A stretch of DNA of 64,000 nt from an uncultured Myxococcales bacterium (GTDB taxonomy: Bacteria > Myxococcota_A > Polyangia > JAAYKL01). Location of the stretch: the NCBI GenBank assembly GCA_964458775.1, contig CAYWLQ010000009.1, forward strand, positions 3,077 to 67,076, in the 5' to 3' direction. The position numbers were made by a program, and so were the translations under genes. The notes below the pieces were generated by a model that did no database searches, was not told where the DNA came from, and worked only from the letters and a program-made list of their open reading frames with translations. The number at the start of each line of letters is the position of its first letter. Position 1 is the stretch's first letter. Positions 36,167 to 61,781 of the stretch are shown here, piece after piece.

Positions 36167-37297
36167 TTATAGTTTTGCCCTTAACGCATACCATCCTATG
36201 TTTATAGAGAACTCACATGGGTCGCAGCTTTCGCTTGCGTTAAGGCATGGTTCGCAGGTTTTATTAATCGATAGAACTGCACCTTCGGCGTCTGTTACAT
36301 TTTCTCGCCAGATGTCGGTAAACTGATTGGTTGAGTCGTAGTTAGCGGAATAGAGTTCAACATAAAAATTTATTGAATCTGTGGCTTCGTCATACATTGG
36401 ATAGTCACCGATACCTTGATTGTAGAGTGCCTCCGGAATGTAAATTCCAAGCACCCAAGCTTTATTCGGTCCGGCATTTCCTTGCGCCCAAAGATCTAAT
36501 TCCTTTTCTCCATTGTATTCGTACCAATTGGCATAAAACACATCTAGCAAAACATCTTTGCCGTCGTGCATTGCGATATAGTCAATATTGTTACCGTCAA
36601 GTAAGACTGCCGCCTCATCGTCAATTCCTACAGGTATTGAGAAGTTATCTAATGCAAATCCTCCTACTCCTAAACATAAGGGCAATCCCCAGAGATCTAC
36701 ACAAACATCTCCACATTTGCATGGATCATCTTCTGCAGATTCATCACACATCGGATAACAATAGTTTTCAGAGTATCTGGTCGACGGAAAAACCCAGCTT
36801 CCGCATTCAGAATTTTCACAGCATTCTTCTAAATCGCTACAGATGCTTCCCTCACAATCGTTGTATACACAGTCGCTGTCAGCATCGGTGTCAGCATCTG
36901 CATCTGCATCCGAATCTGTATCGGCATCAGCATCGGTATCGGCATCGATATCGGCATCAGTATCAGCATCGGCATCAGCATCTGAATTGCCGGTACATCC
37001 TTCGCATATTCCCCATTTTTGTCCGCTGCTTTCACATTCTTGAACTCCGGTTCCTCCTTCTGCACATGGACAGACTTTTAGATCACCGGGAACACACGTT
37101 TCTGAACCCAAACAACCTTTACACGGTCCCCAAGAGTTACCGTCTTCACTACAGACCTGAACCCCTGACGTATTTGTTCCGGGACACGGGCAATCTTCTT
37201 GTAAACCGGGAGGACATCCTAGAATTTCACTTGTACAGCCGAACAGTCCATTAAGATATGTCAATGCAATCAATAACGTTGCTATCGTGCGAATCAT
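36167..37297 (-). CDS. cysteine-rich-repeat lipoprotein with internal (Asp-Ala/Asp-Thr)n low-complexity tract
   Basis: Lipobox 'LFGC'. Three tandem Cys-rich repeats of the form C.C.G..G.Q.C...G..WG.C.GC (similar to the cysteine-rich repeats seen in myxobacterial secreted proteins). A 38-aa [37 protein letters not shown] tract, then a Cys-containing C-terminal domain. Confidence 0.5.
   Translation of the reverse strand: MIRTIATLLIALTYLNGLFGCTSEILGCPPGLQEDCPCPGTNTSGVQVCSEDGNSWGPCKGCLGSETCVPGDLKVCPCAEGGTGVQECESSGQKWGICEGCTGNSDADADADTDADIDADTDADADTDSDADADADTDADSDCVYNDCEGSICSDLEECCENSECGSWVFPSTRYSENYCYPMCDESAEDDPCKCGDVCVDLWGLPLCLGVGGFALDNFSIPVGIDDEAAVLLDGNNIDYIAMHDGKDVLLDVFYANWYEYNGEKELDLWAQGNAGPNKAWVLGIYIPEALYNQGIGDYPMYDEATDSINFYVELYSANYDSTNQFTDIWRENVTDAEGAVLSINKTCEPCLNASESCDPCEFSINIGWYALRAKL
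36875..36988 (-). repeat. tandem hexanucleotide (GCATCR)n repeat encoding (Asp-Ala)n
   Basis: Plus-strand DNA reads ...gcatcggtgtcagcatctgcatctgcatccgaatctgtatcggcatcagcatcggtatcggcatcgatatcggcatcagtatcagcatcggcatcagcatct... Confidence 0.8.
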
Positions 37298-45771: not shown

Positions 45772-45848
<77 letters not shown>

Positions 45849-52563: not shown

Positions 52564-55086
52564 CTAAAAGAAATTCCCGAAGGTAAACTCAAACATAAAA
52601 TTATCTTCGTCATTGTATGTTTTTGTGGGCCATCCCCATTCAAAACGAAGAGGTCCCATCGGCGACATCCATCTAAATCCGAAACCTGCAGAAGTTCTGA
52701 GATATACCGGATTACGATTGCAAGGATCATTAAATACATTAATGCCTCTTCCAGTACCTGCCTGACACCAAGTATCTTCTAAATTAAACGAGTTACCTGC
52801 ATCAAAAAATACAACCCCCTTAATTCCCATCATCTCAACAATTGGAAATTCTATTTCAGTATTAAAAGTAACCCGCATATTTCCGCCGATATTAACACCG
52901 TAGTTCATCGGCGATTGATTGGGGTCAAAATTCTTTGAGATAGACAATCTCGGTCCAAGAGACCATGGGTAGAATCCTCTGACATCCATAATACCGCCTG
53001 AACGATAACGATGTACGATGGCTAACCCTTCTGAATTGTTTGAATAGATAAGTCCAAAGTTACCTTGAAAACGAAATACAAGTTTCCAAAACAACGGTGC
53101 ATACCATCTAGAGGAGAGTGAATACCGAGTAAATCCAAAATCTGACACAATATAAGGAGAAGCCCACTCTACAGACAACATATTATAGTGACCCTTGGTC
53201 GGAAACAATCTGTTATTTCTTCTGTCAAAAGCCAGCTTAGCTTGTAAAATGGAAGAAAAACCTTCTTTAAATAAGTGTGCCAGAGGCAAATCGGCAAATC
53301 CTGAATCAATGCTTCTTCCTCCGGAGATAAGCAAGCCTCTGCTTGTATCGGTGTCGACCTTGTCGTAAGAAAGGCTGTAGGTAAGATAGAGTTTTAAATC
53401 ACGATGCCCAAGAGAATGCCCAAGAGTAAGATCCCCTCCTGTTGATCTCTTGTTGTAGTCGATTTGGGACATGACTGTATTATAGATACTAAAAGCTAGA
53501 GTCCAATTGGTATCCAAGAAATAAGGTTCCCAAAAATTTCCCATAAAAATCTGACGCATGGAAGACATCTGGATTTGAAGGGATAGGGTTTGGCCGTGAC
53601 CTAAGAAGTTTTGTTCTGACACTTGAGCTTGCGCAATGAATTTTTCAATGGAGCTAATACCCATTCCCACCTGAAACTGGCCGGTATGCTTTTCTGTTAT
53701 TTCAACCGTAAGACTGATCTTGTCTTTTGAGCTTCCGGGAGTTTCTGTAATGTCGACGCTTTCAAAAAAGCCTAACTGTGTGACTCTGGCTTTTGAAGCT
53801 TCTATTCCGGTTTTGCTGTAACGAGCTCCCTCGTTAACAACTACTTCTCTTCGGATAACTCTGTCTTTGGTTTTTGTATTGCCGCGAATATCTATTCGCT
53901 CAAAATAAACCATCGGTCCGCGAACAATATCGAAAACCAAATCGACTATTCGTGTTTCGGGATTGGTCGGAGTTCCCAAATTAACATTAACGTGAGCATA
54001 GCCCTTATCTTGATAATATCGAGTAATTCGGTTTACATCTTCCATTACCGAAGTTCGAGAAAACCAAGTTTCTCGCTCTGTCTTTGCCATAGAGCGAACA
54101 ACTCTCCTTCCTCCAAGTAACTCAATCGAATTGTTGTTTTCGTCGTGTTCTTGAACTTTTATTCTTCCCACACGATATCTAGGGCCTTCTTCAATCGGAA
54201 TCGATAAAAAAATGTATCGTCGATCAGCTGAAAGTTCAACTCTGGGAGAACCGACCTTTACATCAAGATATCCGTGATCCCAATATACTGCTGAAATAAT
54301 TGTGACATCTTGTTCGAAGTTTTCCTTGTTGAAGGTTCCGGAGCTCGTCAGCATCGAAAGCGGACCTCCGGTTCTGGTAGACAAGTATCGAGCAATAGCA
54401 GCATCGGAAAGAGCTTTGTTTCCCACAAATGATATTCGCTTAACCTCTACTTTTGCATGTTCATCTATTTCAAAAACAACATCGTATGCATTTTCTCCGT
54501 TTTGTTCCAACTTGTAGTCAATAATGGATAAAAAATAACCCTTTTCAGAATACAAATCTCTGATCTTTTGTAGATTTCGATGAATAGAGGGATCATCTAA
54601 GGGTTTATTAGCCTCCAAGTCGATTACTTCTTTAATATCGTCATCATCAATCTCGCTATTACCCTCAAATTTTACCTCATTTACAGCGGGTTTTTCTTCT
54701 ATTGAAAAGACAACGACTACACCGTCCTTGTGCTCTTTGAGGCTGACTTTGATATCGCTGAAAAAACCTATTGCATATAATGATCGAATATCTCGCGCCA
54801 ATCGAGCTTCGTCATAAACAGTATTGGGACGTGTTGAAATATTCGTCCTAATATCGTTTGAGCCCACTCGCTTGTTGCCTACAACCTCAATATCAACGAC
54901 AATTCGATTTCGCGCTTTGTTAGGTGAAAGCTCTGCAAGCTCTTTTTCAAATTCAGCATTTTCATCTGTATCTGTATCTGTATCTTGATCTTGTGCGATG
55001 CTGATTTTTACTTCCGTTAAAACAATAATTGCAATACCGGCTATAACTATTGATATGAATGTATTTGATGATGAGAAACGACGCAT
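52564..55086 (-). CDS. bamA: outer membrane protein assembly factor BamA
   Basis: Signal peptide, multiple POTRA-like modules, and a C-terminal 16-strand barrel ending in 'FEFTFGNFF'. Confidence 0.9.
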   Translation of the reverse strand: MRRFSSSNTFISIVIAGIAIIVLTEVKISIAQDQDTDTDTDENAEFEKELAELSPNKARNRIVVDIEVVGNKRVGSNDIRTNISTRPNTVYDEARLARDIRSLYAIGFFSDIKVSLKEHKDGVVVVFSIEEKPAVNEVKFEGNSEIDDDDIKEVIDLEANKPLDDPSIHRNLQKIRDLYSEKGYFLSIIDYKLEQNGENAYDVVFEIDEHAKVEVKRISFVGNKALSDAAIARYLSTRTGGPLSMLTSSGTFNKENFEQDVTIISAVYWDHGYLDVKVGSPRVELSADRRYIFLSIPIEEGPRYRVGRIKVQEHDENNNSIELLGGRRVVRSMAKTERETWFSRTSVMEDVNRITRYYQDKGYAHVNVNLGTPTNPETRIVDLVFDIVRGPMVYFERIDIRGNTKTKDRVIRREVVVNEGARYSKTGIEASKARVTQLGFFESVDITETPGSSKDKISLTVEITEKHTGQFQVGMGISSIEKFIAQAQVSEQNFLGHGQTLSLQIQMSSMRQIFMGNFWEPYFLDTNWTLAFSIYNTVMSQIDYNKRSTGGDLTLGHSLGHRDLKLYLTYSLSYDKVDTDTSRGLLISGGRSIDSGFADLPLAHLFKEGFSSILQAKLAFDRRNNRLFPTKGHYNMLSVEWASPYIVSDFGFTRYSLSSRWYAPLFWKLVFRFQGNFGLIYSNNSEGLAIVHRYRSGGIMDVRGFYPWSLGPRLSISKNFDPNQSPMNYGVNIGGNMRVTFNTEIEFPIVEMMGIKGVVFFDAGNSFNLEDTWCQAGTGRGINVFNDPCNRNPVYLRTSAGFGFRWMSPMGPLRFEWGWPTKTYNDEDNFMFEFTFGNFF

Positions 55087-55434
55087 ACGCTGATTTTGTT
55101 CCTCCCGATGTCGCCCAAGGGTGACAATTAAGATTTCGACGTTGTACGTCGTGAACGATGTATAGTCAACTACAGTAATCTTTAGAGTTTCTCTAAAAAG
55201 GTGGAAGAGAAAGATTAGATATTATAAATTCAATGAAAACAGTTTCATTTTCGAGAAAGAATGGTCGGCACGGAGAGGCTATTACGGCCGGCGTGGAGAG
55301 AGTACAAATTGCTTTTCGGAAAGCGTCCAAAACCAAGAACAGTCGTTAATTTCAAACATATTGCCATGTTATTGGAAATTTTCGATTGGATTTTTGCATA
55401 ATTGAGGGGCTGTTGAACAAGTAAAGCAGCAAAT

Positions 55435-57039
55435 TTACCCTGTTTTACTCTTGTTTTTTTGCAGACGTTGATAGAGTGCGGCCCCTCTGGCATTTAGCAA
55501 CACCCAGAGTTCTCTAAATTTCGTATAAAAATATCGGTTATTATGATTTATGCGAACAGCTGATTTGACGGCAAAATCTTGTATTTCAGCTGCGGTCTTG
55601 TGATGATGGGTTAGAGAAAAATCAAGAGCAATGCGCAGCTCCTTTACGGTATCTAAATGTGCCTCTGACAGCAGATCGTCAACAGATCTGCTGATATTGT
55701 CTGTGGCTTCTCCAGGAAAAAAGGCTTCGTGTGCTTGACGAGCGAAAGAAATGCTTATGAGCTTATTTAGTAAGCTGCTTACCGCAAAAGCACGTTCGTG
55801 AAAGCTTACTCTTAAGATCCTAAACATTATTTCACAAACGGGATCTCGCATTTCGTATCCGAAGTTGCGATAGTCTCCGGTCAGTCGGTTTTCTGCTTCC
55901 AGTGCGCGCAAGAGAGGGGTCCCCGAATAAATCTCTGTTCGACAGACATTCCACGGCAAATGGTGAACTGTTTCTGCAAAGTCAATTGTGGTTGCTACAT
56001 CTTCAACAGAGCAATCCGGATCAAACAACATTAAATTGAAAGACGGTCTAATGCCGTTTTCCTCGCAGTTGCGAATAGCCTCAATATTATGAAAGTGTTG
56101 ATGGGTTCTTCCTAAATACATTAGCCTTTGGTCTGAAGCGTTTTCAACGCCCAAAAACATATGTACTACTCCAAGTTCTCGCGCTGTTTTTGCAATATCT
56201 TGGGTAATAGATTCAGGCCTTCCCTTTACCCAAAAAACAGGTGTATCAAGACCTCTTCTTTGAAGTGCAGCTGACATTTCGTGCATGCGACGAAGGGTTC
56301 TTTGTCGATTAGGCAGAACAAAGAGATCATCCTGAAAGAAGAAAGTTCTAATATCGCATTGATGGTAGTGATCTGCGATTTCGTCCGCGACGGATTCTAC
56401 TTGACGCAATCTGAGCAGCGGTCCTCCGGCATCTCTACCAAAAGACTGTATAGAACAATATGTACAAGCACCAAAACATCCCCTGGCTGTAATAACAAAA
56501 GCAACAGGCACTCCGCCTACCGAAAACGGACCGGGATTTCTTAACTTCGGTCTTGGAAGTATATCCAAATCTTTTATCGTAGGGCGCGGCGGCTCAACAA
56601 CGATGCCTCCTTCGCTTCGATATACCAACCCTTTTATTCCTTTGAGTTGTTTGCTGTTTTCAAGAGTTTCGACCAATTCATTTAAGGTATGTTCACCCTC
56701 GTGTCTTACAACTGTGTCTATTGCAGAACAGTCTTTTAGAATATTTTCGTAACAAAAGGTAGGCACATGGCCGCCGCATGTAATGTGACCGTCAAATCCT
56801 GCTTTTCGAATTACAGATGCCAAATGCAGATAGTCATTAACTGCAAATTGAAAAGAAATACCGAGACCTATTACATCTGGATTATTTTTAACTATTTGTT
56901 CGGTACATGTGTTTGTATCGTCTTTATTGTTAAAGCGAATTAATTCTGCTTCGTGACCGGCGCTTTCTAAAGAAGCAGCCAAATATCTCAGAGGCAAATT
57001 GTCTTGCTGATCGGGACCTATTAAAGCAATTTTAGCCAT
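55435..57039 (-). CDS. cobalamin (B12)-binding radical SAM (class B) enzyme
   Basis: The N-terminal B12-binding Rossmann region ('KIALIGPD...GLGISFQF...ITCGGHVPT') is followed by '[13 protein letters not shown]', a CxxxCxxC-type radical SAM cluster motif. Start taken at MAKIALIG. Confidence 0.8.
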
Positions 57040-58270
57040 GTAAAGTGCTGTGTTTAAAGTAAAAAGATGATGTACCGACAGATGTTCCTCTTTTAACGAC
57101 AACTTGTATGTGGTGATAGCCTCCGGATGAAGGAAGTTCCCAAATCACACCGCCCAAATTAGAATCAGAAACATTACCGTCTGAGGGAATCCATTCGTAT
57201 TGCAAAGGTCCGTTTCCGCCGCAAACTTCAGCAACCAAACAAACCGACCTTGAACTTAATGCAACCGGAACAATGTTTGTATGGATCGCCTGACTCAAAG
57301 GGGCTTCCTCTTCTGACTGTTTTGGAATAATCGGACTGGGTGCCATTTCGCAAATAAACTCGCACACCGTACAAGTGCCGCCTGAGCTGACCCAGTTAGC
57401 AGGAGCATTGCCTTCACACCAATTCAGGTAGGTCAGTGTTTCTACCTTTTTTGTATGTTCGCCGGCTTCATCACATCTAACATCCATTGTTACTTTTATT
57501 TGTAACTCAGAACGATAAAAACTATCAATGTTCACTTCGGAGGGCCAAAAAACAGTAAATGAAAACCCTTCTGTGTCATCAATTAGGTCCAAAACAGTGA
57601 CTTCGTACAATATTGTCGGATAAGCATAGGATACTTCAATAGAGGGTTTTCCCACTACTGCATCTTTCAAGTCCGCAGGTATTATTATTCGGCCGGAAGC
57701 AATGTTTGCATTTGCTGAATATGCATTTAGGGTTACTCGCGCAGCCAAATTGCTGTCTACCGGTTCGTCGGAGTTGGCGCAAATAGCAAAAGCTTCTGCG
57801 TCTACTCCCGGAGGAGGTGACGAGACAACAAACTCGTTAGGATAGCTGTAATTCGGGCAAGGGTCAGCATCGGAATCAGTATCGGCGTCAGCGTCAGCAT
57901 CGGCATCAGCGTCACCATCGGCATCCATGTCAGTATCGGCATCCATGTCGGCATCAGCATCAGAATCTGCATCTATATCCATATCAGCATCAGCATCTAT
58001 GTCCATATCGGCATCAGCATCAGCATCTATGTCCATATCAGCATCAGCATCAGCATCAGCATCTATGTCCATATCGGCATCAGCATCAGCATCGCCATCA
58101 GCATCTGAATCGGCATCAGCGTCAGATGCCGAGTCACTGCTTAAATCCGTACTGGAATCTGTGTCGAATACGATGTTTTTACTATTGCCCTCTATGCAAC
58201 CCGAAACTGAAGAAAGAAGCAAACCGCACAATATTAAAATAAAGACTGTTTTACGAGGTTTGTTACCCAT
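57032..58270 (-). CDS. lipoprotein with a 93-aa (Asp-Ala / Asp-Met-Asp-Ile)n tract and an unknown Cys-containing C-terminal domain
   Basis: Lipobox 'SVSGC', then '[91 protein letters not shown]'. Confidence 0.5.
57863..58141 (-). repeat. about 280 bp of tandem (GCATCR)n hexanucleotide repeat with a higher-order unit of about 30 nt
   Basis: Plus strand: ...catcagcatcagcatctatgtccatatcggcatcagcatcagcatctatgtccatatcagcatcagcatcagcatcagcatctatgtccatatc... Confidence 0.8.
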
Positions 58271-58485
58271 TTTATCACCTCATTATCGGTTTAGTAGCAA
58301 ATTCTACAGCCATTATACCCGCAAAGAGAACAAAAGAGAACCGCACATTGTATAAATATAAATGGGTACAAGTTACATAATGCACACATGCAAAATATGA
58401 CTTTTCAACCGACAATCATTAAAAAAACGGCTTCGGTTTATCCGTGTAATTGTGTTCTATTTGTGCATGTGTCACAATGCGCTTT

Positions 58486-59844
58486 ATGAAGCGTCTTCTT
58501 GTAGTTGATGACGAAGAATCTATTAGGCTGACCCTATCCTCAATGCTTGAGAGAAAAGGCTACAGTGTTACAACCGTTAGTTCCGGAGCTTTGGCTCTGG
58601 AAAAGCTCGGCCAAGACACCTTTGATGCTGTTTTGACAGACGTTCGTATGCCTGACATGGACGGGATTACGTTAACAAAAGAGATTATTTCTAAAAACCT
58701 TCCGGTCACAGTAATTGCAATGTCGGCTTACGGTTCGGTGGAAAATGCAGTGGAAGCTATGAAAGCCGGCGCTTATGATTATATAACCAAGCCGTTTAAG
58801 ACAGACGAAGTTTTGCTAACTCTTATGAAAGCGGATGAACGAGAAAGGCTTAAACGTGAAAATGCCTTTTTAAAAGCCGAATTGGGTGAGTCAGTTGCTT
58901 CCAGATGCATTGTCGGCCAATCAGAATCGATGACCCGATTGTTTAAATTGATTTCTAAAATAGCAGACTATAAATCTACAGTATTAATTACAGGGGAATC
59001 GGGCACAGGCAAAGAGTTGGTTGCCAGAGCGCTTCACAACAGTTCATCAAGAGCAAACAAACCATTTGTGGCGGTCAACTGCGGTGCTATTCCTGAAACC
59101 CTGTTGGAATCAGAGCTGTTCGGATATAAAAAAGGCGCATTTACAGATGCTCAGCAAGACAAAACCGGAATTTTTGCTGAAGCTGAAGGGGGCACACTTC
59201 TTTTGGATGAAATAGGAGAGCTTCCTCTACCGCTTCAGGTTAAGCTTCTTAGGGTTTTGCAAGAGGGAACAATCCGAAGAGTTGGAGATACCAAGGACAT
59301 TAACGTGAATGTTCGTGTGGTTGCTGCTACCATTCGAGATTTGTCCTTTGAAGTACAAGAAGGAAGATTTCGAGAGGATTTATTTTACAGGTTAAATGTT
59401 CTGCCGGTTCATATTCCTCCTTTGCGCGAACGAGCCGGAGATATTGTTCTTCTTATTAAGCATTTTATAGATCATCATAATCGTAAACTTGGCCGTAACG
59501 TTAATGGATTTTCTCCGGAGGCTGAAAGAGTCCTGTTATCCTATAACTGGCCCGGCAACGTCAGGGAACTTGAAAATACCATTGAAAGAGCGGTGGTATT
59601 ATGTGAGGGAGACAGAATTGCTGTAGAGGATTTGCCTGAAAGAATTAGAGGATTCCAAAATTCAACCCATACTGTGTTTTCCGATAGCGAAATATCTATC
59701 AAAAAAGCTGTGAGAATTATGGAAAAAGAACTCATCAGTCGAGCTCTGAGAAAAACAGGCGGCAATCGAACTCTTGCTGCAAAGCATTTAGAAATTAGTC
59801 ATCGAGCTTTGCTTTACAAAATCAAGAGTTACGGTTTGGAATAG
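58486..59844 (+). CDS. sigma-54-dependent two-component response regulator (NtrC family)
   Basis: Receiver ('LLVVDDEESIR', 'DAVLTDVRMPDMDG'), AAA+ sigma-54 activator ('GESGTGKELVARALH', 'GAFTDA', 'ESELFGY'), and C-terminal Fis-type HTH. Start taken at MKRLLVV. Confidence 0.9.
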   Translation: MKRLLVVDDEESIRLTLSSMLERKGYSVTTVSSGALALEKLGQDTFDAVLTDVRMPDMDGITLTKEIISKNLPVTVIAMSAYGSVENAVEAMKAGAYDYITKPFKTDEVLLTLMKADERERLKRENAFLKAELGESVASRCIVGQSESMTRLFKLISKIADYKSTVLITGESGTGKELVARALHNSSSRANKPFVAVNCGAIPETLLESELFGYKKGAFTDAQQDKTGIFAEAEGGTLLLDEIGELPLPLQVKLLRVLQEGTIRRVGDTKDINVNVRVVAATIRDLSFEVQEGRFREDLFYRLNVLPVHIPPLRERAGDIVLLIKHFIDHHNRKLGRNVNGFSPEAERVLLSYNWPGNVRELENTIERAVVLCEGDRIAVEDLPERIRGFQNSTHTVFSDSEISIKKAVRIMEKELISRALRKTGGNRTLAAKHLEISHRALLYKIKSYGLE

Positions 59845-59897: not shown

Positions 59898-61781
59898 ATG
59901 CAGCGAAAACCCTTCGCAACAATAACACAGGATGGAATAGTAAACAGCATCAATTACGAAGCAGTTGTTACACTTGGCATTCCTGCTGATTCGCTTGTAG
60001 GAAACTCAATACTTTCACACCTTATCGAACCTCACAGGCTGAGATTTGAATGCGAGTTGTCGGCAGTTCTAAATGAAACTGAACAATATGGAAAAGCTTA
60101 CTGCACGGTAGTAGGGGCAGACGGAGTGGGGCGCAAGCTGAGCTTTGCGATGACGTCAAATAAGGACGGAACGGCGGATCTTGTAATTCTTCCATATCGC
60201 TCACCCAATTCCTATCAAGGTTCATTTATTACTTCTCTATTTGATTCGGGACGTATTCTTCCTGTAGCAAAACATATTTTGTCAATAATAAGAAAAGCTG
60301 CAACCAAGGAAGAGCTTCTTACAGACGGTCTAAAAATTCTTGCAGAAGCGGTCGGTGCTGACGGGGGGGCAATATTGGAGTGGGAAAGCATTCGCGAAAA
60401 CGCACCCGCCTTAACGATCGGAAACTTTGATAACTCCCATTTGGCCGGAGTTTTTCGCTCTGCGATTATGGCAAGACTTACTCGCGGTGATGTTGTTGTA
60501 AAAGAAACCTCGCTGGACGGAAGTGATTCCAGCGCGTGTCTTTTAATTATGCCTCTTTTAACCGGACCGGTTCCTTTTGGAGTTGTGTTGCTTCAAATAG
60601 CCAGAGATACGGAATTGGTTCCGGAAGAACAACAGGGACTGGTTGTTTTGGGCGAAATAATGGGACTTGGAGTTAAAGCGCTGACGTCAGCTCCTAAGCA
60701 TCGTCAAGTTCGATCTTATTATAGCAATGATAATGAGGCTTCTTTAGCGCTTGGAAGACTATCTTCCGGATTTACACACGAGATAAACAATGCAGCGACT
60801 ATTCTTAGAAATAACATAGAACAAGTACTCCGCAAAGGAGACATGATAAATGCTACTACCGAGACAGCAGTAAAAGATTCTTTGAGTGCGCTGGAAACTA
60901 TGCATGATTTAACTCAAGCGCTTAAGGTTTTCGGCCCTGAAGAGACAACAATGTTTGAGCAGGTTAATCTGCTGCGTATTCTTGATATCGTCAGCAGATC
61001 AGTGCGTTTTTACGCTAAACGCGGAATAAATATATCTTTGGAGCATCCCGAAAATGATATTCCGCTTGTTAGAGCCCGAAGCCATCATCTGACACGAGTG
61101 TTTTTTCTCATTTTCGTTGAGTTATTTGATGCATCACAAGATGCCGGAATTGAGCTGGGAGTTCAGATTTCCTTTAAGGTAGAAGCCGGTATTGTTTCGT
61201 TATCTATTACTGTGTCTGCCGGTCCCTTCAGCCTTCCTGCTGTTTTGTTAGCTCAACTGGAACAGGGCGGTACACTTGCGGGCCAAGTAATAGAGGCAGG
61301 CGGAGTGCTTTCCCATTCAGTTGACCACCAAGGAAATATGAATATTACAATTGCTCTAAAGGAATCTTCAGGTCATTCAACACCCCGTATGAGTTCAATT
61401 GCAGCATCACCCAGAAGGCGAGGAACAATTCTAATTGCTGACGATGAAGTAGCTGTTATTCGATCTTTACGAAGAGTTTTAGACCAATTTTACGACATTT
61501 TTGCTGCTCGATCAGGCGAAGAAGCTTTGGAGATTTTAAAAACCAACCCGCATATTGAGGTGGTTTTATATGATGTGTCTATGCCCCGAATGGGAGGTAT
61601 TGAGTTCTTTGAAGAACTGCAAAAACAAGGTTTAAGTCAAACTCATCAAATTGTATTTGTCAAAGCGGGATCATATGATCCGGAAGTTATGGATTTTCTA
61701 TCTTCAATAAGTAATCCGGTAGTTGACAAACCGTTTGATATTCCTACGCTTAATGACATAATAGCATCTATGCTAATATAG
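59898..61781 (+). CDS. hybrid sensor histidine kinase (GAF/PAS-like N-terminus, HisKA, HATPase, C-terminal receiver)
   Basis: H-box 'GFTHEINNAATIL'. ATPase G-boxes further downstream. C-terminal receiver 'TILIADDEVAVIRSL...VVLYDVSMPRMGG'. Confidence 0.75.
   Translation: MQRKPFATITQDGIVNSINYEAVVTLGIPADSLVGNSILSHLIEPHRLRFECELSAVLNETEQYGKAYCTVVGADGVGRKLSFAMTSNKDGTADLVILPYRSPNSYQGSFITSLFDSGRILPVAKHILSIIRKAATKEELLTDGLKILAEAVGADGGAILEWESIRENAPALTIGNFDNSHLAGVFRSAIMARLTRGDVVVKETSLDGSDSSACLLIMPLLTGPVPFGVVLLQIARDTELVPEEQQGLVVLGEIMGLGVKALTSAPKHRQVRSYYSNDNEASLALGRLSSGFTHEINNAATILRNNIEQVLRKGDMINATTETAVKDSLSALETMHDLTQALKVFGPEETTMFEQVNLLRILDIVSRSVRFYAKRGINISLEHPENDIPLVRARSHHLTRVFFLIFVELFDASQDAGIELGVQISFKVEAGIVSLSITVSAGPFSLPAVLLAQLEQGGTLAGQVIEAGGVLSHSVDHQGNMNITIALKESSGHSTPRMSSIAASPRRRGTILIADDEVAVIRSLRRVLDQFYDIFAARSGEEALEILKTNPHIEVVLYDVSMPRMGGIEFFEELQKQGLSQTHQIVFVKAGSYDPEVMDFLSSISNPVVDKPFDIPTLNDIIASMLI

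Follow-up and report, generated by a model that had tools for sequence, protein, structure and literature searches.

The 64,000-nucleotide stretch of DNA analysed here (the window) comes from an uncultured Myxococcales bacterium, and its reverse strand encodes, at 57032..58270, a lipoprotein in which aspartate alternates with another residue (Asp-X, or D-X) along a long hexanucleotide array. This repeat is probably a disordered polyanionic tether, lying between the lipid anchor and the folded domains and grown by in-frame repeat expansion. Although striking, the repeat is in itself nothing out of the ordinary, being a low-complexity linker of a type understood in principle; the family of proteins to which its carrier belongs is uncharacterized. 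The gene, its parts and its partner are:

57032..58270 (-): lipoprotein precursor coding sequence, 412 amino acids, ATG start (from the list of open reading frames (ORFs); P0001 of the public collection is identical to it)
58196..58270 (-): signal peptide and lipobox, residues 1-25, VSG followed by C25 (from the translation, an AlphaFold2 (AF2) helix at residues 7-21 and the alignment of the homologues' Cys)
57863..58195 (-): whole tether, residues 26-136, about 111 amino acids, predicted by AF2 to be disordered
57860..58123 (-): strict Asp-X alternation, 44 pairs, residues 50-137, 264 bp, GAT/GAC plus GCN/ATG/ATA/TCN/ACN/GGN
57353..57862 (-): β-sandwich domain, residues 137-306, with conserved Cys and CxxC, AF2 predicted local distance difference test (pLDDT) score mostly > 90
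57329..57352 (-): CEMAPSPI motif, residues 307-314, in an interdomain segment of low confidence
57035..57295 (-): C-terminal PKD-like immunoglobulin (Ig) domain, residues 326-412
55435..57039 (-): gene for a B12-binding radical S-adenosylmethionine (rSAM) protein, 534 amino acids, with PF02310 and PF04055 above their cut-offs

The ORF stands as the original prediction gave it, as does its assignment to the lipoproteins. The translation opens with a basic n-region (M-G-N-K-P-R-K) and runs through a hydrophobic core to the lipobox V-S-G-C, whose Cys25 lines up with the lipobox Cys of homologues in the alignment. Lipoprotein precursors have a charged n-region, an h-region and a lipobox of the form [LVI][ASTVI][GAS]C within about 15 to 35 residues of the start; all of these are present, and on its sequence the product of 57032..58270 is such a precursor and a putative substrate of Lgt and LspA.

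Modelling of the non-repeat domains had been suggested along with the original prediction. In the AF2 model of the full-length protein, residues 21-135 have pLDDT < 50 and no secondary structure, and the domains from residue 137 on, a β-sandwich and a PKD-like Ig domain, are confident; pLDDT falls below 50 again at residues 307-319, around CEMAPSPI. As in lipoproteins with N-terminal disordered linkers, more than 22 residues that are predicted to be unstructured follow the sorting signal and lead to a globular domain. C138, C164, C266, C285 and C303 are invariant across the family alignment, and [A/C]EMAPSPI is the most conserved 8-mer among 99 full-length family members. Searches of Pfam and NCBIfam with the whole protein, the folded part alone and three homologues returned no family, only compositional matches to staphylococcal SD repeats.

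Tandem Repeats Finder (TRF) places the array at 57864..58125, with a period of 6, 43.7 copies and 67% matches. The array and its description had thus been given correctly, while its size, put at 93 residues and about 280 bp, comes down to 88 residues and 264 bp when strict alternation is required. Residues 47-136 comprise 44 D, 27 A, 6 M, 5 S, 4 I, 2 G and 2 T, encoded mostly by GAT (34 codons) and GCT or GCC (25). Higher-order periods are also present (30, with 80% matches; 36 and 54, with 81%), but not as the fixed 30-nucleotide unit that had been claimed: the unit is DMDI(DA)n with n = 4, 3 or 2, equivalent to 36, 30 and 24 nucleotides. Three consecutive copies of GCATCR, with one mismatch allowed, match 13 times in the window, always in this array or in a second one described below, and never in 100 dinucleotide-preserving shuffles. 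Recent internal duplications have occurred in the array, since it contains an exact duplication of at least 40 nucleotides at an offset of 66 nucleotides, and one 24-mer occurs three times. The tether, made of in-frame GAT-GCN hexanucleotide repeats, has probably expanded recently through such duplication, either by slippage or by unequal recombination. As the repeat unit is a multiple of three, slippage may change the length of the protein but cannot switch its expression.

An assembly artefact, by collapse or chimerism of a repeat, is suggested by the exact internal repeats of ≥ 40 nucleotides and by the break of the k-mer-based Logan assembly of run SRR8925738 within the array, at window position 58012. 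However, the Logan contig that ends there (L161) is identical to 55230..58012 (0 mismatches), so the distal 150 bp of the array are independently confirmed, and comparable arrays are present in orthologues. The array also runs in frame from a canonical lipoprotein signal into a conserved domain, and its units are individually distinct (DS, DG, DT and DMDI), which together with the Logan match indicates that it is real; an artefact is very improbable. The other end of L161, at 55230, lies within the 348 bp that separate the rSAM gene from that for BamA (55087..55434), where a repeat or a change in coverage may break k-mer assembly.

Homologues of the folded part show how the tether varies. A word-indexed search with residues 137-412 found 11 homologues, and an exhaustive profile search with the folded part found 429 representatives at E ≤ 1e-3, 133 of them at E ≤ 1e-30. 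A scan of species-representative genomes (the GTDB set, which excludes the window's own genome and in which the best match is 39% identical) gave 32 loci with identities of 29 to 39%. All are labelled Myxococcota or carry older names, and they include Polyangiaceae, Sorangium sp. So ce375, Labilithrix luteola and Sandaracinaceae. The folded part (β-sandwich, [A/C]EMAPSPI and PKD-like Ig domain) defines an unnamed family, every named member of which belongs to the Myxococcota. The window protein has each of the family's features: a lipobox, a variable low-complexity linker, the Cys-containing β-sandwich, the conserved motif, the Ig-like domain and an adjoining orthologous rSAM gene.

From lipidated Cys to folded part, the linker measures 33 to 115 amino acids (median 54) in the 66 members with a recognizable lipobox. 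That of the window (112 amino acids in this count) is the third longest, and its D-X run of 88 residues is the longest in the family, followed by one of 80 in P0072. Linker composition ranges from D-X repeats (DT, DS or DA) to Gly/Ser-rich stretches such as GGAGGTGG, and the folded part is conserved throughout. The closest module found, L157, is in the metagenome-assembled genome (MAG) GCA_964442305.1; its rSAM protein is 69% identical to that of the window, and the folded part of its lipoprotein is 55% identical, with no gaps. The L157 tether is (DA)n, about half the length of the window's, and has its own 18-nucleotide unit, present in 3.6 copies at 100% identity. This combination of a similar tether type with a separate repeat unit suggests that orthologues retain the type of tether and expand it independently and recently. 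A search of the Joint Genome Institute (JGI) metagenomes for close relatives, in which repeat lengths could be compared within the species, found none.

At 40%, the guanine plus cytosine (GC) content of the window is far below that of the family relatives. Linker composition as a by-product of GC content was rejected, since D-X tethers occur at 40, 61, 66 and 71% GC (window, L157, L159 and L162, respectively) and Gly-rich linkers occur at 55 to 74%, overlapping the D-X range.

N-terminal disordered linkers are required for the proper Lol-dependent sorting of outer-membrane lipoproteins in E. coli (10.1101/2021.01.05.425367), and in E. coli RcsF it is the length and disorder of the linker, not its sequence, that determine correct outer-membrane targeting (El Rayes et al., 10.1101/2021.01.05.425367). 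Like the linkers of RcsF, NlpD and Pal, the window tether is a disordered segment that leads directly from the lipidated Cys and the sorting residues to a globular domain. Unlike RcsF-type linkers, it has about 111 amino acids (against a threshold of > 22), is perfectly periodic, is negatively charged at about half of its residues and is encoded by tandem DNA. The interchange of D-X and Gly-rich linkers within the family fits the RcsF case, in which length and disorder matter and sequence does not.

On the proposed tether model, the lipid-anchored Cys25 would be joined to two β-domains through some 111 disordered and strongly polyanionic residues, whose function probably depends on their length and disorder rather than on exact sequence, by analogy with other lipoprotein linkers. 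Dense negative charge, on about half of the residues, would hold the tether expanded and unfolded, and the folded domains could then stand off from the membrane, by some 40 nm if the tether were fully extended. In this organism the tether may also aid lipoprotein sorting. The presence of BamA, Skp and HrcA genes downstream in the window indicates that the organism is diderm; the linkage to BamA and Skp is not conserved at the other loci.

Several points weigh against the tether model. A generic spacer would not need so regular an Asp-X periodicity, which may reflect a specific property such as cation binding. Both D-X and Gly-rich linkers are found in high-GC relatives (the D-X linker of L162 at 71% GC being an example), indicating that composition is not simply the result of mutational drift and may be selected. 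The disorder of the tether is a prediction of the structural model, any assignment of the protein to the inner membrane, the outer membrane or the surface is putative, and over some 110 bp at the 5' side of the array (58013..58123) the number of copies depends on a single assembly.

The regularity of the repeat is the starting point for another explanation, that the Asp-X tract is a functional polyanion which binds Ca2+ or Mg2+, or mineral or cationic surfaces, as has been suggested for (Asp-Y)n acidic matrix proteins, and is not a mere spacer. With 44 Asp at strictly alternate positions, an extended chain would put the carboxylates on one face; furthermore, D-X periodicity is retained in several orthologues and the window BamA carries a short DTDTDTD run. 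Nevertheless, orthologues with uncharged Gly/Ser-rich linkers keep both the folded domains and the rSAM partner, from which it follows that acidity is not essential to family function, and Pfam gave no match to the whole protein at E ≤ 1, thrombospondin type-3 and other Ca-binding acidic repeats included. A binding role of this kind is unlikely. The (Asp-Y)n acidic matrix proteins of biomineralization are secreted by eukaryotes, interact with crystals and have Asp alternating with a small residue. Strict Asp alternation is common to these and the window protein, but nothing indicates mineral association here and the orthologues use neutral linkers.

The nearest analogue of the repeat is the Ser-Asp stalk, region R, of the staphylococcal Clf and Sdr adhesins, where long X-Asp dipeptide repeats are likewise encoded by short tandem DNA repeats (PMC3794999; PMC9881980). 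In both cases the repeat lies by an envelope anchor and would form an extended stalk for folded Ig-like domains (PMC3794999; PMC9881980). In contrast to Clf/Sdr, the window repeat consists of Asp with Ala, Met or Ile, so that there are few or no Ser sites for glycosylation of the SdgA/B type, and it adjoins an N-terminal lipid anchor, in a diderm, rather than a C-terminal LPXTG motif. NCBIfam matches (SdrD, ClfA, SdrC and ClfB) were limited to the repeat. Membership of the Sdr/Clf group of MSCRAMMs (microbial surface components recognizing adhesive matrix molecules) was rejected, as the best score (SdrD, 58.9 bits against a cut-off of 2500) is confined to the repeat and LPXTG is absent; the resemblance is compositional only.

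The lipoprotein gene is closely coupled to the rSAM gene that follows it, the rSAM ATG overlapping the lipoprotein stop codon by 8 nucleotides (ATGGCTAA, 57032..57039). The rSAM protein scores 62.9 bits against PF02310 (cut-off 32.1) and 52.7 bits against PF04055 (cut-off 29.5), and its translation carries the cluster motif CFGACTYC (CxxxCxxC). With an N-terminal B12-binding domain and an rSAM core it is, by its domain content, a class B (B12-dependent) radical SAM enzyme. It shares the B12-binding domain and CxxxCxxC core with that class but lies outside every named subfamily. The best NCBIfam matches (BchE, HpnR and ApyD) reach 100 to 110 bits against cut-offs of 481 to 750 (BchE, 109.5 against 481; HpnR, 100.8 against 650), and the models for HpnJ and for the glutamine methyltransferase of methyl-coenzyme M reductase (MCR) are also far below their cut-offs. 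The nearest solved structure is that of OxsB (E 2.4e-14).

Searching with tblastn revealed an orthologous rSAM gene (46 to 55% identity) directly 3' of the lipoprotein gene at 31 of the 32 genome loci; at the remaining locus the contig stops at the lipoprotein gene. Viewed from the rSAM side (369 homologues at E ≤ 1e-30), the lipoprotein gene is immediately upstream in all six contexts for which there is DNA. The junctions are overlaps or gaps of 2 to 11 nucleotides. No further gene is common to more than three loci when ORFs within 8 kb on either side are clustered, other multi-locus clusters being alternative-frame ORFs over the same two genes. Judged by these comparisons, the family is conserved and mostly single-copy and has a B12 radical SAM gene as its partner across the Myxococcota; the lipoprotein is the conserved partner of an enzyme whose gene is probably co-transcribed and translationally coupled with its own. 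An obligate rSAM-lipoprotein pairing was not found in the literature searched. This tight pairing still lacks a family name and an assigned function, and it is a more interesting by-product of the analysis than the repeat. Cultured hosts exist in Sorangium sp. So ce375, with the locus at NZ_CP150335.1:4254708-4271535, and Labilithrix luteola DSM 27648, with the locus at NZ_CP012333.1:271521-288339. A scan for promoters and terminators gave fewer promoter-like sites than shuffled sequence and nothing convincing upstream of 58270, while Rfam detected only a tRNA (45777..45848) and no riboswitch near the operon.

The linkage could mean that the lipoprotein is a substrate of the adjacent B12 rSAM enzyme, modified before export, for example by C-methylation in or near [A/C]EMAPSPI, in which case the tether would be incidental. 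The two-gene linkage is obligate, with junctions of a few nucleotides and no other conserved neighbour, and the most conserved 8-mer lies in an interdomain segment modelled with low confidence and probably flexible, as expected of a site of recognition or modification. Among the distant NCBIfam matches of the rSAM protein are enzymes acting on proteins or peptides (the MCR glutamine C-methyltransferase and C-methyltransferases of ribosomally synthesized and post-translationally modified peptides), all far below cut-off. However, BchE, HpnR and HpnJ, which act on small molecules and lipids, are matched equally well. The rSAM enzyme is cytoplasmic, whereas its substrate would be a precursor exported by a Sec-type route, no twin-arginine signal being evident in the lipoprotein precursor. 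In addition, paralogue P0002 keeps the motif with no adjacent rSAM gene. What argues for a substrate relationship does not go beyond gene linkage, and we regard it as possible but not probable. A modification-site model merits testing in view of the tight gene coupling and of the EMAPSPI segment, which is conserved and flexible. More speculatively still, the pair may form an undescribed, self-contained system of the Myxococcota, in which the enzyme modifies the precursor before export, most plausibly at [A/C]EMAPSPI, and the tether serves to display the domains, once modified, in the envelope.

In L159, lipoprotein paralogues lie on both sides of the rSAM gene. The two genes of L033/L034 stand in the opposite order, overlapping by 11 nucleotides, and a truncated lipoprotein paralogue follows them. 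From these flanking paralogues, the lipoprotein gene appears to duplicate locally. Each paralogue has its own D-X tether, of DS or DT (L159, 4883..8717; L033, 6353..9924). P0002 lies behind genes for an extracytoplasmic function (ECF) sigma factor and a FecR-like protein. Its locus (L035, 79..4884), from the same MAG as L157 (GCA_964442305.1), comprises the ECF sigma factor, the FecR-like anti-sigma factor and a gene of 107 amino acids on a short contig that lacks an rSAM gene. In one relative only (L158, 2516..3949, reverse strand), the gene for Lnt (apolipoprotein N-acyltransferase) is convergent with the rSAM gene and immediately 3' of it.

A second D-X repeat is present elsewhere in the window, and both arrays give rise to antisense ORFs:

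36167..37297 (-): other D-X repeat lipoprotein, 376 amino acids, with its array (36869..36982) in an interdomain linker
36373..37254 (+): antisense ORF at this first locus, 293 amino acids, HRYRHRY...
36843..37043 (+): antisense ORF at this first locus, 66 amino acids, SASVSAS...
57927..58355 (+): spurious antisense ORF produced by the array under study, 142 amino acids, SASASMSAS...

The existence of this other locus and of a shared acidic dipeptide linker, both reported in the original prediction, is borne out by TRF and by a D-X search, and the two proteins are, as it had also stated, dissimilar outside the repeat (best BLASTP E = 1.1). Its suggestion that they represent a lineage-specific family of variable surface lipoproteins is not supported. 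The genes are unrelated, and the resemblance of their arrays is limited to GAT-GCN at the level of codons, no k-mer of ≥ 18 nucleotides being shared. The repeats are also positioned differently, that of 36167..37297 between a Cys-rich N-terminal region and a C-terminal domain and that of 57032..58270 directly after the lipid anchor, and the latter protein belongs to the conserved rSAM-paired family. For the 36167..37297 protein only two homologues were found in 5.8 billion clusters; one has a shorter, irregular D-rich linker at the junction and the other essentially none. Residues 28-104 of this protein form two tandem Cys-rich modules of about 35 amino acids each (CPCxG...GVQxC...WGxCxGC) ahead of the D-X linker, and its C-terminal domain begins Cys-rich.

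These findings bear on whether the array is a contingency locus, changing the protein between cells, in a family of size- or antigen-variable surface lipoproteins. Exact and recent duplications in a tandem array, tether lengths that differ among orthologues (88, about 50 and 34 D-X residues) and two repeat-bearing lipoproteins inside 64 kb would be consistent with such variation. However, the two proteins are unrelated, the one under study is a member of a conserved family with a conserved operon partner, and its surface exposure is putative. On/off switching is precluded by the length of the repeat unit, the imperfection of the array (67% matches at period 6) would lower slippage rates, and neither switch elements nor arrays in paralogues were observed. 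Just one other assembly of this population was found; it agrees exactly across the 150 bp of array within it and breaks off before the array is complete. Variation of this sort is unlikely.

The Vlp, Vsp and Vpma proteins of Mycoplasma are lipoproteins which, like the window protein, can vary in size by way of in-frame tandem repeats (PMC7954426, PMC6080569). They form paralogous multigene families with dedicated phase switches in host-associated, wall-less bacteria (PMC7954426, PMC6080569), whereas the two window genes are unrelated, the one under study belongs to a conserved orthologous family that has an enzyme as its partner, and a switch element was not observed. A paralogous family of the Vlp type, with shared leader and 5' regions, was rejected on the BLASTP and k-mer comparisons above.

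What the two window genes have in common is, as far as their sequences can tell, a recurrent linker design at junctions between anchor and domain or between domains, and not a gene family. Metagenomes scanned for (GAYGCN)8 contained at least 120 such stretches. In at least 22 of the 120 listed, by a heuristic screen for ORFs and lipoboxes, (DA)8 or longer follows a lipobox Cys at a distance of 13 to 68 residues; the ORFs concerned are otherwise unrelated, and their DNA has 56 to 75% GC. The occurrence of (DA)n in unrelated genes and unrelated metagenomic ORFs argues that the D-X motif is not specific to this lineage. Periodic Asp-X tethers after a lipid anchor thus recur in many unrelated environmental lipoproteins; the literature searched, on DADADA and on aspartate-rich lipoprotein linkers, contained no description of them and nothing else relevant. 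They provide a natural test case of whether charge patterning matters in lipoprotein linkers.

An extreme of the same repeat type is seen in a metagenomic ORF of 1734 amino acids (L080, Ga0302347_1000651), where D-X alternation extends over about 1016 residues. The window itself has a third D-X tract, DQDTDTDTDE (54961..54990, reverse strand), near the N-terminus of the BamA ORF (52564..55086), an envelope protein that is not a lipoprotein.

In practice, the arrays are a hazard for annotation, as the original prediction had warned: they yield antisense ORFs of 142, 293 and 66 amino acids. The array under study also breaks k-mer assemblies.

Regulatory genes lie close to the lipoprotein gene in the window and to the rSAM gene in L157. 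Divergent from the lipoprotein gene is one for a sigma-54 NtrC-type response regulator (58450..59844, forward strand), followed by a gene for a protein with GAF and receiver domains (59898..61781, forward strand) that weakly matches the Myxococcus kinases EspA and EspC. In L157 a hybrid histidine kinase gene follows the rSAM gene. A regulatory linkage is possible.

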